Positions 50 through 13,850 of a stretch of 14,585 bases of DNA are shown here, in pieces. The notes beneath the pieces were generated by a model, which saw only the letters and a program-made list of their open reading frames with translations, was not told where the DNA came from and ran no database searches. The translations under genes and the position numbers were made by a program. Numbering within the stretch: the stretch's first letter is position 1; the number at the start of each line of letters is the position of its first letter. The stretch comes from a virus. The stretch lies in UHGV virus genome UHGV-0166592; one strand, 5' to 3'.

Positions 50-916
50 TTACTCACCCTGTGGATCATGATATTCAACGCACGCCTGTAGCGTGTTTTC
101 AATCAGCGTGGCAACCGTCATCGGGCCAACGCCGCCCGGAACAGGCGTAATGTATGAGGCGCGTTTAGCCGCGTCTTCAAACACGACGTCGCCCACAACT
201 TTGCCATTTTCCAGACGGTTGATGCCGACATCAATCACAATTGCGCCTTCTTTGATCCAGTCACCAGGAATAAAGCCCGGCTTGCCGACGGCAACGATCA
301 GTAGATCGGCATTTTCTACGTGGTGACGCAGATTTTTAGTGAAACGGTGGGTCACGGTAGTGGTGCAACCTGCCAGCAGCAGTTCCATGCTCATTGGGCG
401 ACCGACGATATTCGATGCGCCAATCACCACGGCGTTAAGGCCAAAGGTATCAATGTTGTAACGCTCAAGCAGCGTGACGATACCGCGCGGGGTGCAGGGA
501 CGCAGACGTGGCGCGCGCTGGCACAGGCGACCGACGTTGTAAGGATGGAAACCGTCCACGTCTTTGTCCGGATGAATACGTTCCAGCACTTTGACGTTAT
601 CAATACCCGCCGGTAACGGCAGTTGAACCAGAATGCCATCAATGGTGTTGTCGGCATTCAGCGCATCGATAAGCTCCAGCAGCTCCGCTTCGCTGGTGGT
701 TTCCGGGAGGTCATAAGAGCGGGAGACGAACCCGACTTCTTCACAAGCCTTGCGTTTGCTTGCGACATAAATTTGCGATGCAGGGTTGCTACCCACCAGC
801 ACAACGGCCAGTCCTGGCGCCCGCAGTCCGGCTGCAATACGCGCCTGAACTTTTTGAGCAACTTCAGAGCGCACCTGCTGCGCAATCGTTTTACCGTCAA
901 TAATCTTTGCTGCCAT
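50..916 (-). CDS. folD: Bifunctional 5,10-methylene-tetrahydrofolate dehydrogenase / 5,10-methenyl-tetrahydrofolate cyclohydrolase FolD
   Basis: 288-aa ORF, ATG at 916..914, TAA at 52..50. The translation ([19 protein letters not shown] ... [16 protein letters not shown]) matches my recollection of E. coli FolD almost residue for residue. Confidence 0.95.
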
Positions 917-4880: not shown

Positions 4881-5243
4881 TTAATGACCTGCTGCGCGTA
4901 GTTTTCCGTCAGGTTCACCGGCAAGAGTCAGTAATTGTCCCTGGTCTTCCTGCAGAATAGTCAGGCGACCACCGCGATTGACATACATCGGCGTTTCGGT
5001 GGTGTCTTCTTCGGAAATTTTCCCGCGGTTAGTTGGGCGAACATATGAGAGTTTGTGTTTGATTTTCACACGGTTCTCATCAAACGGTTCGATTTCCAGA
5101 TTGAGTGAGACCTTCCCTTTGGTTTTCGTGTTCATCACACCGGAAGCGACCTCACTGAGAACTGCGCCGATTTTGGTTTCAAATACGCCGCCGTCCAGCT
5201 CCCCGATAAATGCCTGCACATCAGTACTGCGTTCGCTAGCCAT
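4881..5243 (-). CDS. YfdP-like protein, function unknown
   Basis: Start placed at ATG 5243..5241 (MASERSTDVQAFIGELDGG...), which has a strong RBS GAGGAG 6 nt upstream and gives 120 aa. The upstream extension of the ORF track to 5408 lacks an RBS. Confidence 0.65.
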   Translation of the reverse strand: MASERSTDVQAFIGELDGGVFETKIGAVLSEVASGVMNTKTKGKVSLNLEIEPFDENRVKIKHKLSYVRPTNRGKISEEDTTETPMYVNRGGRLTILQEDQGQLLTLAGEPDGKLRAAGH

Positions 5244-5380: not shown

Positions 5381-5432
5381 AAAAAAGGACGGTACCAGCC
5401 GGAAGCAAGGGTACAAACTGGTACCGCCAGGA
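5381..5432 (-). terminator. Candidate intrinsic terminator in the left-operon leader
   Basis: On the minus-strand RNA a 9-bp stem (CGGUACCAG / CUGGUACCG, arms 5418..5426 and 5390..5398, extendable to 11 bp with one G-U pair) is followed by UCC and then UUUUUU (complement of 5381..5386). The 19-nt loop is larger than typical. Confidence 0.4.
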
Positions 5433-5645
5433 CTACACACAGCATAAAGTTGTGGTGCCGGGTGCCTCCCGGTGCCTGGCGAAGGTTGCACACCAGGCGG
5501 GTGGGTATCCACAGAAGGTCGACTGTCAGCCTCAACCTTAACCCGCGTGCGCTGAGCCGCATTCACCACAACGCTAAGGATTCTCTCTGGTTGAAAATAC
5601 TTAGCTGTTATGTGCCTGCTTTTAGCCACATCAGGCGAGGTGGAC

Positions 5646-5697
5646 CTGGTTATTCCCCAACAACAAGGATTCGGTTAATCTGGTTATCCCCAACAAC
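5646..5697 (+). repeat. Two direct repeats CTGGTTAT(T)CCCCAACAAC upstream of the 144-aa gene
   Basis: Copies at 5646..5664 and 5680..5697 are identical except for one extra T and are 34 bp apart. They end 16 nt before the ATG at 5713 and are a candidate regulator-binding site. Confidence 0.6.
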
Positions 5698-5712
5698 GCA
5701 AAAGGAAAAGAA

Positions 5713-6147
5713 ATGTCCGGTAATATCTACACGCTGTACAAATCCCACTGTGAAAATGTTGGAAAGTATCGGGGCATTGAAATCAGTGGGGTAGTGTCAT
5801 CAGTCGAAATAAGCAAAGTGGAATCAAGGGCAACATTACTTACTCTTCTGGACCTTGTCTTACATGAGCACCGGAAGAAATTCGGTACTCCCTATAATCA
5901 GTTGAATGGGAAAAAGGCTCTGGTTCACCTTATTCTGATGAAGCATCACTGGATGCCAAAACAGATTAATGAGATGAAATTTGATGAACTTCTTCTTTCA
6001 ATTCAGGATGAACTCACACTTGATAAAATAAGCGTAACCGCCCAGAAATTTTTAGATTATCGAGACTGGAGATCACAAATTCATCACTTTGATGATTTTG
6101 ACGAAAATGAATGGGATCCTAATTTGTCTGCACAATATCTAAAGTAA
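5713..6147 (+). CDS. Hypothetical 144-aa protein; AT-rich cargo gene in reverse orientation
   Basis: 435-nt ORF in an AT-rich segment, with RBS AAAGGAAAAG before ATG 5713. A 144-codon ORF in AT-rich DNA is unlikely by chance. I recognise no family. Confidence 0.6.
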   Translation: MSGNIYTLYKSHCENVGKYRGIEISGVVSSVEISKVESRATLLTLLDLVLHEHRKKFGTPYNQLNGKKALVHLILMKHHWMPKQINEMKFDELLLSIQDELTLDKISVTAQKFLDYRDWRSQIHHFDDFDENEWDPNLSAQYLK

Positions 6148-6325
6148 CATCCTGTGATAAAACCGTGATTTCCTGATCCAGTTTTTTTAAGGAGTCTATT
6201 GTTTCCTGTCGATAAGACAGCACTTCACGAAGCTGGTTTATAGCTGCCAGCTTCTTTGTCATCCGCTCATAAATTTCCTCATCTGTGTAGCCAGGCGCGA
6301 CGATTTTGGGTTCTGTTTTGTGCAT
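6119..6325 (-). CDS. Hypothetical 68-aa protein; candidate first gene of the leftward early operon
   Basis: ATG 6325..6323 with RBS GAGGAG 7 nt upstream; codon usage looks E. coli-like. Its 3' end overlaps the 144-aa gene convergently by 29 nt. No arginine-rich motif, so it is not an obvious N homologue. Confidence 0.4.
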   Translation of the reverse strand: MHKTEPKIVAPGYTDEEIYERMTKKLAAINQLREVLSYRQETIDSLKKLDQEITVLSQDVTLDIVQTN

Positions 6326-6370
6326 TTCACATCTCCTCAAGTTATCAGTTACTTGTTGATGGGGACCAGA

Positions 6371-6383
6371 TTGTTAAAGAGCT
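6371..6383 (-). promoter_or_regulatory. boxA-like antitermination element (minus-strand RNA AGCUCUUUAACAA)
   Basis: The 12-mer GCTCTTTAACAA on the minus strand is identical to the rrn/consensus boxA core as I recall it (TGCTCTTTAACAA). It lies directly 3' of a hairpin and 45 nt upstream of the RBS of the 68-aa ORF. Confidence 0.45.
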
Positions 6384-6410
6384 AAGCGTCCTGTAGGGCG
6401 CTTTTTTGTT
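6384..6410 (+). terminator. Intrinsic terminator on the plus strand, downstream of the 144-aa gene
   Basis: Stem GCGTCC / GGGCGC (6386..6391 and 6396..6401, one G-U pair), loop TGTA, then TTTTTTGTT (6402..6410). The same hairpin on the minus-strand RNA sits immediately 5' of the boxA-like element. Confidence 0.6.
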
Positions 6411-6490
6411 GCTAACGAATCACCCTAGACTTTATATGCCCCAGGCGGCTACTTCGTGGGCGTCCTGCCTGTTCGTTATCTTTGATATAA

Positions 6491-6519
6491 AATCTAACTT
6501 AACTTAGTTATTATGGCAA
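6491..6519 (-). promoter_or_regulatory. Candidate pL-like promoter with overlapping operator-like palindrome
   Basis: On the minus strand: -35 TTGCCA (6519..6514), 17-nt spacer, -10 TAGATT (6496..6491). The near-palindrome CTAACTTAACTTAG (6494..6507) overlaps the spacer and -10 and resembles the OR palindrome at 7222..7235. Further CTTAG copies lie at 6539, 6552 and 6572. Confidence 0.35.
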
Positions 6520-6572
6520 GAGAAAACACCAAACTTTTCTTAGTTCGGTGCCTTAGTTAGAGAAGAGAGGTC

Positions 6573-7199
6573 TTAGAGTTCGTATTGAACTCCTTTGACT
6601 ACACCAATGATAAGGCAATTACCATTGATAGGGATGTTGGGATACCGAGGATTTAATGGCACTAAAAACTTTTGAGGGCCATCGATGACTAATTTTTTTA
6701 CTGTAGCTTCGTTTGTTCCATCAAGTCGAGCGATGACTATTTTTCCATGACGAGGTTCTGCATCTGGATCTACAATCACTGTTGCGCCTTCTGGTATTGT
6801 TGGGAGGCCATTAGGGTTAGTCATGGAGTCACCTTTAACCTCTAATGCAAATGAGTTATCACCAATCTTTAATGATGTATCTACCCACTTGTCCACTTCA
6901 CTAAACACTTCTGCTGCCCTGCACTCAGTAAACTGCCCAGCCTGAACCCACGATATTACAGGAACTCTGCGCATGTTTGTGACGAGTTTGCCTTCAAACT
7001 CAGCACCATAAAGAATGTAATCTATTGACGTATTGAAGAACTTCGCTAATTTCGAAAGTGCCTCCCCACCAGGGGTATTGATGTCTTTCTCCCAGTACCC
7101 CACAGCAACGTCGCTTACTCCACAAAATTTACCCAATTCTTTCTGGGACGTTCCGGTAACTCTTCTCAGAGCTTTTATACGCTGACCAACCGTTTCCAT
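6573..7199 (-). CDS. cI: CI-type prophage repressor (N-terminal XRE-family HTH, C-terminal S24 LexA-like peptidase)
   Basis: 208-aa ORF. The N-terminus (QRIKALRRVTGTSQKELGKFCGVSDVAVGYWE) is an HTH; the C-terminus has the S24 Ser/Lys dyad context (GDSMTNP ... TVKKLVIDG). It is divergent from the cro-like gene. Confidence 0.9.
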   Translation of the reverse strand: METVGQRIKALRRVTGTSQKELGKFCGVSDVAVGYWEKDINTPGGEALSKLAKFFNTSIDYILYGAEFEGKLVTNMRRVPVISWVQAGQFTECRAAEVFSEVDKWVDTSLKIGDNSFALEVKGDSMTNPNGLPTIPEGATVIVDPDAEPRHGKIVIARLDGTNEATVKKLVIDGPQKFLVPLNPRYPNIPINGNCLIIGVVKGVQYEL

Positions 7200-7296
7200 A
7201 GGAGCACCATTTCTTGAATTGCTAAGTAATCTTAGTTTTTATTGACCAAAGATAGATTTGTAATTAGCATCTAATAAAACTTAGTTTGGAGGGCGT
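7200..7296. promoter_or_regulatory. Divergent cI/cro control region (OR-like) with operator palindromes
   Basis: 97-bp AT-rich interval between the divergent cI and cro starts. It contains the inverted repeat CTAAG-TAAT-CTTAG (7222..7235), the palindrome AAACT-T-AGTTT (7277..7287) and a candidate -35 TTGACC (7242..7247). Exact pR/pRM positions are not resolved. Confidence 0.6.
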
Positions 7297-7497
7297 ATGA
7301 CAACTGACGATATCGAAAGCTACTTCGGCAGTATTGAGAAAGTTGCTGCTTTTTTCGGCATAACAACTGAAGCCGTTTATCAGTGGCGAAACCGTCCGGG
7401 CCAGTTAATTCCAAAAGGACGTGCAGCAGAAGCTGCATATAGAACTTGCGGACGGTTGCCATTTAAACCTGAGCTTTATGAAAAATCTAATGGATAA
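7297..7497 (+). CDS. cro: Cro-like small HTH regulator (YdaS-type)
   Basis: 66-aa ORF divergent from cI, with RBS GGAGGG before ATG 7297. HTH-like segment GSIEKVAAFFGITTEAVYQWRNR. Confidence 0.8.
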   Translation: MTTDDIESYFGSIEKVAAFFGITTEAVYQWRNRPGQLIPKGRAAEAAYRTCGRLPFKPELYEKSNG

Positions 7498-8086
7498 ATC
7501 GATTAACAGAAACCACAGAACGATGAGGCTAACCGTGGGTAAGCATCACTGGAAAGTAGAAAAACAGCCTGAGTGGTACGTGAAAGCTGTCAGAAAAACT
7601 ATCGCAGCGTTGCCGGGTGGTTACGCTGAAGCAGCTGACTGGCTGGATGTAACAGAAAACGCATTATTTAACCGCCTTCGTGCCGATGGCGATCAGATTT
7701 TCCCGCTGGGATGGGCAATGATTTTGCAACGTGCTGGTGGAACTCACTTCATTGCTGACGCTGTGGCGCAGTCTGCAAATGGCGTCTTTGTGTCTCTTCC
7801 TGACGTCGAGGATGTGGACAACGCCGATATTAACCAGCGCCTGCTGGAAGTCATTGAACAGATTGGCAGTTATTCCAGACAGATTCGTTCGGCAATCGAA
7901 GACGGTGTGGTGGAACCGCATGAGAAGACAGCAATTAACGACGAGCTGTATCTCTCAATTTCGAAGCTGCAGGAGCATGCAGCACTGGTCTACAAAATCT
8001 TTTGCGTTTCAGAAAGTAGTGACGCCCGCGAGTGTGCAGCTCCGGGCGCCGTGGCGTGTCGTGACTGTGGAGAAACTAACGCATGA
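7478..8086 (+). CDS. CII-like / YdaT-family early regulator (start uncertain)
   Basis: The ORF immediately follows and overlaps cro. Possible starts are 7421, 7478 and 7490; none has a strong RBS. Its position after cro and its size fit the phage CII/YdaT-type regulators as I recall them. Confidence 0.5.
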
Positions 8087-8421
8087 ACAGTTTAACAACA
8101 CACTACCGTCGCTCGCAACTGATTGCGCTTCCTGTACCGGGTGGAAAAGCGAAGGTGGAGTATTGCTATGCAGTTAATGTACCAGGTGACAGGGAAATTG
8201 TAACCCACAGCTTTGCTGAGTGGGCTGTGGGTGATTTCAACCGGCAGAAGGAGACAGTCCTTTGCGACAAGTTAACCGCTGGTTCAAAGATCACTACGGA
8301 GTGCCCGTCAGAGTCATTCGTTGGGAGCCGGAAACACAACGAGTTATCTACCTCCGCGAAGGCTATGAGCATGAGTGCTTCAGCCCGCTCGAACAGTTTC
8401 GTCGTAAATTCAGGGAAATAG
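8083..8421 (+). CDS. Hypothetical protein, frame 1 (overlaps a better-looking alternative frame in its 3' half)
   Basis: ATG 8083 overlaps the upstream stop (ATGA), with GGAG 10 nt upstream. The C-terminal third translates to low-complexity S/A-rich sequence, suggesting that part is not the genuine frame. Confidence 0.3.
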
Positions 8422-8441
8422 AGGTCGGTCATGAGCACTAA
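8262..8441 (+). CDS. Candidate small protein, DUF4222-like, non-ATG (TTG) start
   Basis: The frame-3 translation [58 protein letters not shown] looks protein-like. There is no in-frame ATG; TTG 8262 lies 8 nt after a strong RBS AAGGAGA (8248..8254). It ends TAA 8439..8441, overlapping the replication gene start. Confidence 0.3.
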
Positions 8442-9372
8442 ATTAACCGGCTATGTATGGGATGGTTGCGCTGCATCAGGCATGAAATTATCCAGCGTGG
8501 CAATTATGGCCCGCCTGGCTGATTTCAGTAATGACGAAGGTGTGTGCTGGCCATCAATTGAAACCATTGCCCGCCAGATTGGCGCGGGGATGAGTACCGT
8601 CAGAACGGCTATCGCACGGCTGGAAGCAGAAGGCTGGTTAACGCGTAAGGCGCGTCGCCAGGGTAACCGCAATGCGTCGAATGTTTATCAGCTTAACGTT
8701 GCGAAGCTTCAGGCAGCGGCATTTTCTCAACTGTCAGATTCTGACCCGTCAAAATCTGACGCATCAAAATCTGACCCGTCAAAATTTGATGCGTCGAAAT
8801 CTGGCAAAAAAGCGGGTTTTCACCCGTCAGAATCTGGTGGGGATCCGTCAGTAAAATCAAAACATGATCCGTCAGATAAAAAAACTTCTCGTCCGGACGC
8901 TTCGCAACCGGACACGCAGACGGCTGAACAGGATTTTTTAACTCGCCATCCTGATGCGGTTGTATTCAGCCCTAAAAAGCGCCAGTGGGGGACGCAGGAT
9001 GATTTGACCTGCGCACAGTGGCTCTGGAAAAAAATCATCGCCCTGTACGAGCATGCCGCCGAATGTGACGGCGAGGTGGTTCGTCCCAAAGAACCGAACT
9101 GGACAGCCTGGGCAAACGAAATTCGCCTGATGTGTGTGCAGGATGGTCGTACTCATAAACAAATCTGCGAGATGTACAGCCGCGTCAGTCGCGATCCGTT
9201 CTGGTGCCGTAACGTGCTCAGCCCGTCGAAGCTGCGGGAAAAATGGGATGAGCTTTCCCTGCGCTTATCGCCGTCCATCAGCACATACACAGAAAAACGC
9301 GAAGACCCGTATTTCAAATCCAGTTACGACAACGTGGACTACAGCCAGATCCCGGCAGGATTCAGGGGGTGA
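8431..9372 (+). CDS. Replication initiation protein (N-terminal winged HTH, C-terminal DnaT-like domain)
   Basis: 313-aa ORF with RBS GAGG 6 nt before ATG 8431. The N-terminus (VAIMARLADFSNDEGVCWPSIETIARQIGAGMSTVRTAIARLEAEGWL) is the wHTH of phage initiators; the C-terminus (TCAQWLWKKIIALYEHAAE...) resembles DnaT-type domains. The central linker is encoded by iteron-like repeats. Confidence 0.8.
   Translation: MSTKLTGYVWDGCAASGMKLSSVAIMARLADFSNDEGVCWPSIETIARQIGAGMSTVRTAIARLEAEGWLTRKARRQGNRNASNVYQLNVAKLQAAAFSQLSDSDPSKSDASKSDPSKFDASKSGKKAGFHPSESGGDPSVKSKHDPSDKKTSRPDASQPDTQTAEQDFLTRHPDAVVFSPKKRQWGTQDDLTCAQWLWKKIIALYEHAAECDGEVVRPKEPNWTAWANEIRLMCVQDGRTHKQICEMYSRVSRDPFWCRNVLSPSKLREKWDELSLRLSPSISTYTEKREDPYFKSSYDNVDYSQIPAGFRG
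8731..8885 (+). repeat. Iteron-like 15-bp repeats inside the replication gene; candidate origin
   Basis: Five tandem 15-bp units at 8731..8805 (e.g. CCGTCAAAATCTGAC, GCATCAAAATCTGAC, CCGTCAAAATTTGAT), then three spaced copies at 8824, 8845 and 8869, followed by an A-rich tract. Confidence 0.6.
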
Positions 9373-13097: not shown

Positions 13098-13850
13098 ATG
13101 AACCTTGAAGCCTTACCAAAATATTACTCCCCAAAATCTCCAAAATTGAGCGATGACGCACCGGCGACAGGCTCAGGTGGTTTAACGATTACGGATGTGA
13201 TGGCTGCGCAGGGGATGGTGCAGTCGAAAGCACCGCTTGGGTTTGCCTTATTCCTGGCAAAAGTTGGTGTTCAGGATCCTCAGTTTGCGATTGAAGGTCT
13301 GCTCAATTACGCGATGGCAATGGATAACCCGACATTGAACAAATTGAGTGAAGAAACCCGGTTACAGATCATCCCTTACCTTGTGAGTTTTGCCTTTGCT
13401 GATTATTCCAGGTCTGCGGCAAGTAAGGCTCGCTGTGAGCATTGTGCTGGTACTGGATTTCATAGTGTATTGCGCGAAGTGGTGAAACACTCCAGAAGCG
13501 GGGAATCTGTTATCAAGGAAGAGTGGGTGAAGGAATTATGTCAGCATTGCCATGGTAAGGGAGAAGTCAGCACGGCTTGCAGAGGGTGTAAGGGTAAAGG
13601 CATTGTCCTGGATGAAAAAAGAACCCGGCTTCATGGCGCGCCTGTTTATAAGATTTGTGGGCGTTGCAATGGAAACCGGTTTAGTCGTTTACCGACCACA
13701 CTGGCACGACGTCATGTCCAGAAGCTGGTACCAGACCTGACTGATTATCAGTGGTACAAAGGATATGCAGACGTCATTGATAAACTGGTAACAAAGTGCT
13801 GGCAGGAAGAAGCATTCGCTGAAGCACAATTGAGAAAGGTGACGAGATAA
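13098..13850 (+). CDS. Late-gene antitermination protein Q
   Basis: 250-aa ORF with RBS GGAG before ATG 13098. The N-terminus MNLEALPKYYSPKSPKLSDDAPATGSGGLTITDVMAAQGMVQSKAPLGFALF matches lambdoid Q proteins as I recall them; Cys-rich zinc-binding region CEHCAGTG ... CQHCHGKG ... CRGCKGKG. Confidence 0.85.
   Translation: MNLEALPKYYSPKSPKLSDDAPATGSGGLTITDVMAAQGMVQSKAPLGFALFLAKVGVQDPQFAIEGLLNYAMAMDNPTLNKLSEETRLQIIPYLVSFAFADYSRSAASKARCEHCAGTGFHSVLREVVKHSRSGESVIKEEWVKELCQHCHGKGEVSTACRGCKGKGIVLDEKRTRLHGAPVYKICGRCNGNRFSRLPTTLARRHVQKLVPDLTDYQWYKGYADVIDKLVTKCWQEEAFAEAQLRKVTR

Follow-up and report, generated by a model that had tools for sequence, protein, structure and literature searches.

A consensus boxA in the predicted pL leader of an N-less lambdoid phage, fused to a convergent terminator and preceded by a conserved leader RNA

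Introduction

The rrn-type antiterminator is composed of boxB, boxA and boxC, with a hairpin 5' of boxA and a GU-rich boxC 3' of it. The boxA of phage lambda is weaker, with the sequence CGCUCUUA. Untranslated RNA is a substrate for Rho. Antitermination by put RNA is factor-independent and requires the zinc-binding domain of the beta' subunit.

Protection of long untranslated RNA from Rho through boxA has been demonstrated both for rRNA (PMC4807359) and for CRISPR arrays (PMC7665894). A different outcome has been described for suhB, where a consensus boxA lies in the mRNA leader no more than 50 nt from the start codon, a distance that was used to select regulatory boxAs, and where the Nus-factor complex represses translation and promotes Rho termination (PMC5725501). 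The boxA itself is thus already known, as are bare boxAs in rRNA operons, suhB, CRISPR arrays and, at the level of sequence, phage T7. What is new here, judged by sequence comparison, is the occurrence of a boxA in the predicted pL leader of N-less phages of the SfV/e14 type, together with its apparent fusion to a convergent terminator as a portable module found at mosaic junctions.

Genome context and promoter region

The window, that is, the whole stretch of 14,585 nt analysed here (UHGV virus genome UHGV-0166592), represents the early region of a temperate lambdoid phage of the SfIV/SfV/e14-like type. Identity to Escherichia phage vB_EcoM-689R6 is 99.5% over 2 kb, and mosaic relationships exist with mEp460 and the Shigella phages SfIV and SfV. 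The leftward genes comprise those for integrase, excisionase and an HD-family hydrolase in addition to yfdQ-like and yfdP-like genes, while the rightward side carries cro, a CII/YmfL-like gene, replication genes and the Q antiterminator (13098..13850). The features discussed below are listed in Table 1.

Table 1. Positions of the features described in the text.
Feature	Position	Strand	Evidence or remarks
yfdP-like gene, first delayed-early leftward gene past the terminator	4881..5243	-	
Strong leftward intrinsic terminator ahead of the yfdP-like gene	5381..5428	-	13-bp stem, U6 tail, -20.5 kcal/mol, z -3.1
Convergent 144-aa gene	5713..6147	+	phrog_5286; equivalent to SfIV ORF-36
First leftward ORF, 68 aa	6119..6325	-	phrog_1744; not arginine-rich; ATG at 6325
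Nearer hairpin after the 144-aa gene, inside the opposite-strand 68-aa ORF	6229..6254	+	-15.6 kcal/mol, z -4.07
boxA 12-mer	6371..6382	-	GCUCUUUAACAA, exact match; extended 17-mer GCUCUUUAACAAUCUGG covers 6382..6366
Intrinsic terminator for rightward (convergent) transcription	6384..6409	+	stem 6384..6403 into T6 run 6402..6407
Conserved 70-nt three-way-junction leader RNA	6411..6480	-	covariance model, 81 bits, E 4e-26
Candidate early leftward promoter pL	6491..6519	-	promoter scan
Operator-like CTTAGTT repeats near pL	6503, 6539, 6552 (span 6503..6558)	.	repeat count
cI-type (LexA/S24) repressor gene	6573..7199	-	phrog_4, E 1.7e-56; labelled cI in near-identical phage
cro	7297..7497	+	

The convergent 144-aa gene lies within a stretch of low GC content (0.35-0.42), and its counterpart was listed as unique to SfIV in the study of that phage (PMC3851460). 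Upstream of it is a 114-aa ORF with a TTG start (5450..5794, plus strand), annotated as ORF-35 in SfIV, whose N-terminal segment is arginine-rich (RRLHTRRVGIHRR). This ORF is encoded on the convergent strand, a position that does not fit an N analogue. Searches with PHROGs and Pfam and a scan for arginine-rich segments yielded no N-like protein in the window or its left operon.

The candidate pL has a -35 hexamer TTGCCA (6519..6514), a spacer of 17 nt and a -10 hexamer TAGATT (6496..6491), with a predicted start near 6486..6483. The related loci that were compared possess a sigma-70-like promoter at an equal spacing ahead of the leader RNA, which starts approximately 20 nt past the -10 hexamer and downstream of the repressor gene; the promoter and operator sequences differ between loci. 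The window contains the repeat CTTAGTT six times, where 1.2 copies would be expected. Of the six, five flank cI, three of them surrounding pL and two others lying on the opposite side of the repressor gene at 7231 and 7280, between cI and cro. This distribution fits a role for the repeats as repressor operators on both sides of cI. An earlier reading of the operator as ACTAAG-N7-TTAGT was discarded, the actual repeat being CTTAGTT.

The boxA sequence

The minus strand at 6383..6371 reads AGCTCTTTAACAA, within which GCTCTTTAACAA is matched perfectly at 6382..6371. This sequence was recovered in 1 of 200 dinucleotide-preserving shuffles (expected count 0.01), and no second site within two mismatches of it was found elsewhere in the window. 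Its 11-mer agrees with the published gamma-proteobacterial consensus, GYTCTTTAANA (PMC5725501). The boxA is in the sense orientation approximately 100 nt downstream of the predicted sigma-70 promoter with its operator-like repeats, a layout that is kept in related loci. It is followed by the 68-aa ORF, for which a GGAG Shine-Dalgarno sequence is located 33 to 36 nt, and the ATG 45 nt, 3' of boxA. The initial annotation, made from the window alone, had proposed an exact boxA identical to the consensus, a candidate pL at about 6491..6519 and the placement of boxA between that promoter and the first leftward ORF; the match holds, as does the predicted layout, and the promoter was recovered by a promoter scan among the CTTAGTT repeats.

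Other components of known antitermination sites were sought in the window. No boxB stem-loop was present 3' of boxA, where the following sequence UCUGGUCCCCAUCAACAAGUAACUGAUAAC contains no hairpin, nor was boxB found elsewhere in the window. No GU-rich boxC was seen on inspection of 6370..6326, the sequence downstream of boxA. The window likewise lacked a pR-side second boxA and any short boxA of the lambda kind, the sole match being a chance-level CGCTCTTTA at 2928.

The adjoining hairpin

When read on the plus strand, the hairpin at 6384..6403 has a stem of 8 bp with a folding energy of -11.5 kcal/mol (z -2.27), and T6 comes next. In the RNA that carries boxA, a C.A mismatch takes the place of a G.U pair and the fold is reduced to -7.5 kcal/mol (z -0.25), the level of shuffled sequences. 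Among 22 unique variants of this hairpin, the strand opposite boxA gives the stabler fold in 21 (median -12.4 vs -7.5 kcal/mol) and the T-run is always on that strand. A convergent ORF ends beside the hairpin in all contexts, such as the 243-aa CDS of PhiR29_1, which ends 20 nt from it, and a 171-aa ORF of Kp4882-1, which ends 16 nt from it. In a crude, ORF-based test, the next 1 kb contained a convergent ORF of 145 aa or more in all 13 unique loci with the combined hairpin and boxA, hereafter the module, vs 38 of 91 loci that had no module (Fisher p = 4e-5). The stabler fold and T-run opposite boxA, together with the adjoining convergent ORFs, indicate that the hairpin is the terminator of the convergent inserted genes.

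The stem energy, the T6 run and the convergent genes next to the hairpin variants bear out the proposal of the initial annotation that the plus strand carries an intrinsic terminator, and the comparison supports its suggestion that one DNA element serves both strands, in the form of a compact terminator/boxA module. The likeness it had drawn to the hairpin-then-boxA order of rrn leaders was not upheld, since all but one of the variants favour the other strand and boxC is absent. In phage contigs generally, consensus boxAs were modestly enriched for GC hairpins that end no more than 6 nt upstream of them (17 of 93 contexts; Wilcoxon p = 0.0015).

A further plus-strand hairpin (6229..6254), with a 9-bp stem and a weak T tail, lies 80 nt past the 144-aa gene. 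It is probably the first terminator of that gene, ahead of 6384..6409. This hairpin, the leader RNA at 6480..6411 and the leftward terminator at 5428..5381 had all gone unremarked in the initial annotation.

Conservation of boxA in related prophages

A total of 134 loci carrying the leader RNA were scanned for the module, which was detected by its A-run and hairpin only, with no requirement for boxA. Conservation of the 12-mer in relatives had been suggested as a check on its significance: the module was present in 24 of these loci and boxA follows the hairpin in all 24, in 22 as the exact 11-mer and in two with a single C10A change, although many copies are close homologues and the counts therefore overstate the number of independent events. 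Variation occurs in the hairpin loop, at the linker base and at some positions of the stem, whereas boxA is constant. With one genome per species, a sense boxA was found within 650 nt after the leader RNA in 16 of 86 loci, against 0.45 expected. Across 1.3 Mb of phage and IMG/VR loci, every exact 11-mer occupied the same position and orientation after the leader RNA. A boxA also follows the leader RNA where the hairpin is missing, 13 nt after it in a Kluyvera prophage and 5 nt after it in a Xenorhabdus prophage.

A distant search using 6330..6500 revealed that boxA and the hairpin recur in differing flanks. In PhiR29-type phages the homology begins exactly at boxA, and in Klebsiella phage Kp4882-1 the 42-nt module alone is present, within a different pL leader. 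Homology stops directly past GCTCTTTAACAATCTGG, giving at least seven unrelated downstream contexts. The early leader of phage T7, downstream of promoter A3, contains the identical 17-mer (T7 nt 812..828). In IMG/VR contexts other than the module, TGG follows the 14-mer in 22 of 89 (p = 3e-20; approximately 15 distinct contexts among those listed). The 17-mer in common with T7 and the frequent TGG suggest an extended boxA common to phages. The conservation in every module copy and the identity with T7 argue that the 12-mer is not a chance match, and the comparison as a whole supports the view that boxA is a real, conserved element, sense-oriented in the predicted pL leader.

Several peculiarities of individual leaders were also observed. 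In many module variants (e.g. L004) a perfect palindrome of 10 bp, TGGATATCCA, comes directly after boxA and ahead of the point of divergence; the window does not have it. The pL leader of Kp4882-1 (L005 2500..2640, a record marked UNVERIFIED) contains the module and lacks the 70-nt RNA; its flanks resemble the leaders of mEp237 and SPN3UB, as if the RNA had been deleted. Leaders of the SPN3UB, mEp237 and Kp4882 types (L008, L009, L005, L084 and L099) exhibit a recurrent motif, AAACGTTCCGCTGGCC(A/G)GCG, which forms a palindromic CGCTGG/CCAGCG stem approximately 60 to 110 nt after the position of the RNA core.

The leader RNA

The leader RNA is predicted to pair in the window as P1 (6477-6472/6419-6414), P2 (6469-6467/6461-6459) and P3 (6445-6441/6428-6424). 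The three-way junction is supported by an alignment of 98 distinct copies, in which paired cells amount to 95.6%, against 71.8% for shuffles and no more than 42% once the partners had been slid, and compensatory changes occur in 10 of the 14 pairs. P1 falls into three sequence classes (RCGAA/UUCGY, GUCAUC/GAUGAC and CCACC/GGUGG), P2 is an invariant hairpin, GGC[AGGAC]GCC, and P3 is a variable 5-bp stem; conservation extends to the junction sequences CACGAAGUAGCYG and AUGA. Promoter context served to assign the strand of the RNA, as G.U vs C.A pairs were not decisive. Inspection of the junction sequences showed that they do not fit hammerhead or other ribozyme cores, nor a C/D-box or k-turn reading of AUGA. 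The occurrence of GGA in the P2 loop and in GGAUGA might conceivably be read as a CsrA site. A search of 5500..8500 against Rfam 15 with E values up to 10 returned only chance-level matches, none of them at the RNA or boxA.

A 22-nt core, GGCAGGACGCCCACGAAGUAGC, is invariant. Exact copies of the core GGCAGGACGCCCACGAAGTAGC were found in no fewer than 120 contigs of IMG/VR and, among genomes representing individual species, in 92 stretches. Almost all of these genomes belong to Enterobacterales, with genera spanning Escherichia, Xenorhabdus, Yersinia, Pantoea and Pectobacterium. In a further distant search, the 81-nt region of the element (6405..6485) had matches in 1842 of 5426 complete E. coli genomes (34%). 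Derivatives of K-12 carry the RNA in prophage e14, between ymfK and ymfJ, where there is no annotation. The e14 of E. coli DH1 (L138 3009..3075) has the variant GTAGCCCGCCCGGTACGTACGAAGACCGGG and no boxA. Each prophage has one copy, and no second copy on the pR side was found in the window or in the 92 genome loci. The only two core matches outside Enterobacterales were from Chryseobacterium sp. 18061 (L270) and Pseudomonas lundensis I31 (L281); the former also has the enterobacterial terminator/boxA module, and contamination or misassembly seems likely. In the papers searched on SfV, SfIV and e14 no link to nut, boxA or this leader RNA was found, and the RNA is apparently undescribed.

Neither boxA nor an N-like arginine-rich motif was present in 151 of 180 unique leader-RNA loci (~84%). 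As most carriers lack boxA, some of them despite convergent ORFs, boxA is not essential for operons with the leader RNA. In three Xenorhabdus prophages (L306, L298 and L305) the RNA is followed by a consensus boxA, within a stretch that runs from approximately 40 to 180 nt after the core. In L306 and L298, this boxA is succeeded by a conserved hairpin, GAUUCAGGCAUUCUUGAAUC, and then by an N-like gene (phrog_271); in L305 it is succeeded by a canonical boxB, GCGCUGAAAAAGCGC, constituting a nut site. Two or all three of these prophages also have, on the pR side at a distance of 1.1 to 1.25 kb, an exact boxA in the opposite strand that looks like a nutR.

The untranslated leftward transcript and downstream terminator

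From the stop of the 68-aa ORF (6119) to the terminator at 5428..5381, the leftward RNA would be untranslated for approximately 690 nt, over which it is antisense to the convergent insert. Within this stretch are segments rich in C and poor in G, such as Rho uses. The terminator itself lies approximately 140 nt before the yfdP-like gene and is kept in loci of the SfIV, 689R6 and PhiR29 types. Its presence implies that antitermination of some kind is needed for the early leftward genes. Across the loci compared, sense-strand terminators downstream of the leader RNA were not enriched over antisense ones.

Comparison with described systems

The phage site resembles the rrn leader boxA in its identical 12-mer, its promoter-proximal position, the lack of any phage protein and the expected protection of untranslated RNA from Rho. 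It differs in having no boxC, in the weakness of the preceding hairpin and in belonging to an operon that is mostly translated. The phage boxA is followed by AUCUGG, unlike that of rrn, where the sequence after boxA is presumably UUUAUCAG. The boxAs of CRISPR arrays, in Salmonella and many other genera (PMC7665894), are similarly stand-alone, with no boxB or N, and precede a long Rho-sensitive untranslated transcript. Unlike these, the untranslated stretch of the phage is antisense to a convergent insert, and boxA is fused back-to-back with the terminator of that insert. In T7, the 17-mer lies after promoter A3 and before gene 0.3, in the early transcript made by the host polymerase of a phage that also lacks N; T7 is however virulent, and its site has unrelated flanks and no convergent terminator. 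With nutL of lambda and P22 the locus shares the map order of cI, oL/pL, boxA and first leftward gene, but the window has neither a boxB after boxA nor N, and its boxA is the full rrn consensus. In the 5' untranslated region of suhB, too, a consensus boxA and a start codon are separated by no more than 50 nt (PMC5725501), whereas the comparative pattern among the phages points the opposite way to repression of translation and promotion of Rho termination.

The leader RNA resembles putL of HK022 and the putL-like RNA of HK639 in being a structured RNA of approximately 70 nt, beginning no more than approximately 10 nt from the start of pL in N-less phages, and all have in common two short motifs, of which CGAAC(A)GGC is at the 5' end and GGAUGA is at the 3' end. 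The put RNAs nevertheless form two tandem stem-loops, whereas the RNA of the window forms a three-way junction, and the covariance model R1 gave no match to putL and putR of HK022 or to the annotated putL-like RNA of HK639. The HK639 record also annotates, beside the putL-like RNA, an 'M3-like RNA' downstream of a CII-like gene (L137 37910..37969).

Proposed role and alternative explanations

The role assigned to boxA is based on what was observed: an identical sequence, its position, its conservation, and its association with convergent genes. From these we infer Nus-factor binding and Rho protection, and consider it reasonably probable that boxA is an N-independent site of the rrn/CRISPR type which shields the pL transcript from Rho across the antisense of the insert. 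On the plus strand, the hairpin and T-run would stop transcription of the convergent insert before it reached pL and cI. On the minus strand, boxA, situated past the hairpin, would bring NusB, NusE, NusA and NusG, as well as SuhB, to RNA polymerase, and the Nus-bound polymerase would be resistant to Rho across approximately 0.7 kb of untranslated antisense RNA, from the 68-aa ORF to the next leftward genes. The association with convergent inserts fits such a shield. A boxA that acts with no N protein is not expected to pass the strong terminator at 5428..5381, so that boxA would not be the whole of the antitermination system.

The leader RNA may supply what boxA lacks. A put-like, polymerase-modifying role is attractive given its position, the invariance of its core across hosts and the terminator downstream, but is weakened by the lack of enrichment of sense-strand terminators and by the coexistence of the RNA with an N-like gene or nut site in Xenorhabdus. 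In one version, boxA and the 70-nt RNA would form a single antitermination site in which the RNA acts in the manner of put to carry polymerase past 5428..5381 and boxA adds protection from Rho. That the RNA begins a few nucleotides into the pL transcript, as does putL, that its 22-nt core is invariant across enterobacterial genera, suggesting a host target, that a strong terminator is located further down and that N is missing from most carriers would all be expected of such a site; its dissimilarity to the put sequences of HK022 and HK639, its single copy with none on the pR side, its presence alongside N/nut in two loci, the ~84% of carriers with no boxA and the terminator counts make us hold this version with considerable doubt. 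Equally tentative is the wider suggestion that the RNA represents a new class of cis-acting RNA, distinct from put, that binds a host factor or RNA polymerase and drives early antitermination in N-less lambdoid prophages, the terminator/boxA module having been added at Rho-sensitive gaps created by convergent inserts.

The 12-mer might be a functionless passenger on a mobile terminator cassette that is spread by recombination and kept for its role on the plus strand, as would suit a module found at mosaic junctions and always beside convergent genes, with a hairpin clearly optimised for the plus strand and many near-identical copies. A random flank would however be very unlikely to match all 12 positions of the rrn consensus and all 17 of the T7 sequence, or to stay invariant beside a variable loop and linker, and the Kluyvera and Xenorhabdus prophages keep boxA after the leader RNA with no hairpin; we regard this explanation as unlikely. 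Repression of the kind described for suhB, in which Nus factors at boxA would repress translation of the 68-aa ORF, promote Rho termination and damp the left operon, is compatible with a boxA 45 nt before a start codon, within the distance used to select regulatory boxAs (PMC5725501), and with the good Shine-Dalgarno sequence of that ORF. At least six other contexts of the module nevertheless lead straight into the 3' end of the convergent gene with no sense ORF, so that the feature common to the contexts is an untranslated stretch and not a start codon, and the repressive role appears somewhat less credible still. The position of boxA equals that in lambda nutL, and related Xenorhabdus prophages pair the leader RNA with boxA, a hairpin, an N-like gene (phrog_271) and a pR-side boxA, as would be anticipated if the boxA were one half of a nut site for an N-like protein. 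For the window this is highly improbable: boxA is not followed by a hairpin, the left operon contains no arginine-rich N-like ORF, and the pR side is without a boxA of its own.

Conclusions

The survey suggests that phages, T7 among them, have an extended boxA consensus, GCUCUUUAACAAUCUGG, and brings to light a leader RNA that is very common, strongly covarying and unmatched in Rfam 15. As this RNA is present in E. coli K-12, its function is directly testable in a standard strain. If the proposed shielding of the pL transcript from Rho is correct, N-less temperate phages would still exploit the host Nus machinery by means of a bare rrn-type boxA, and boxA would move as a portable two-strand module together with inserted convergent genes. 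This would explain how the early operon tolerates convergent inserts without suffering Rho polarity.
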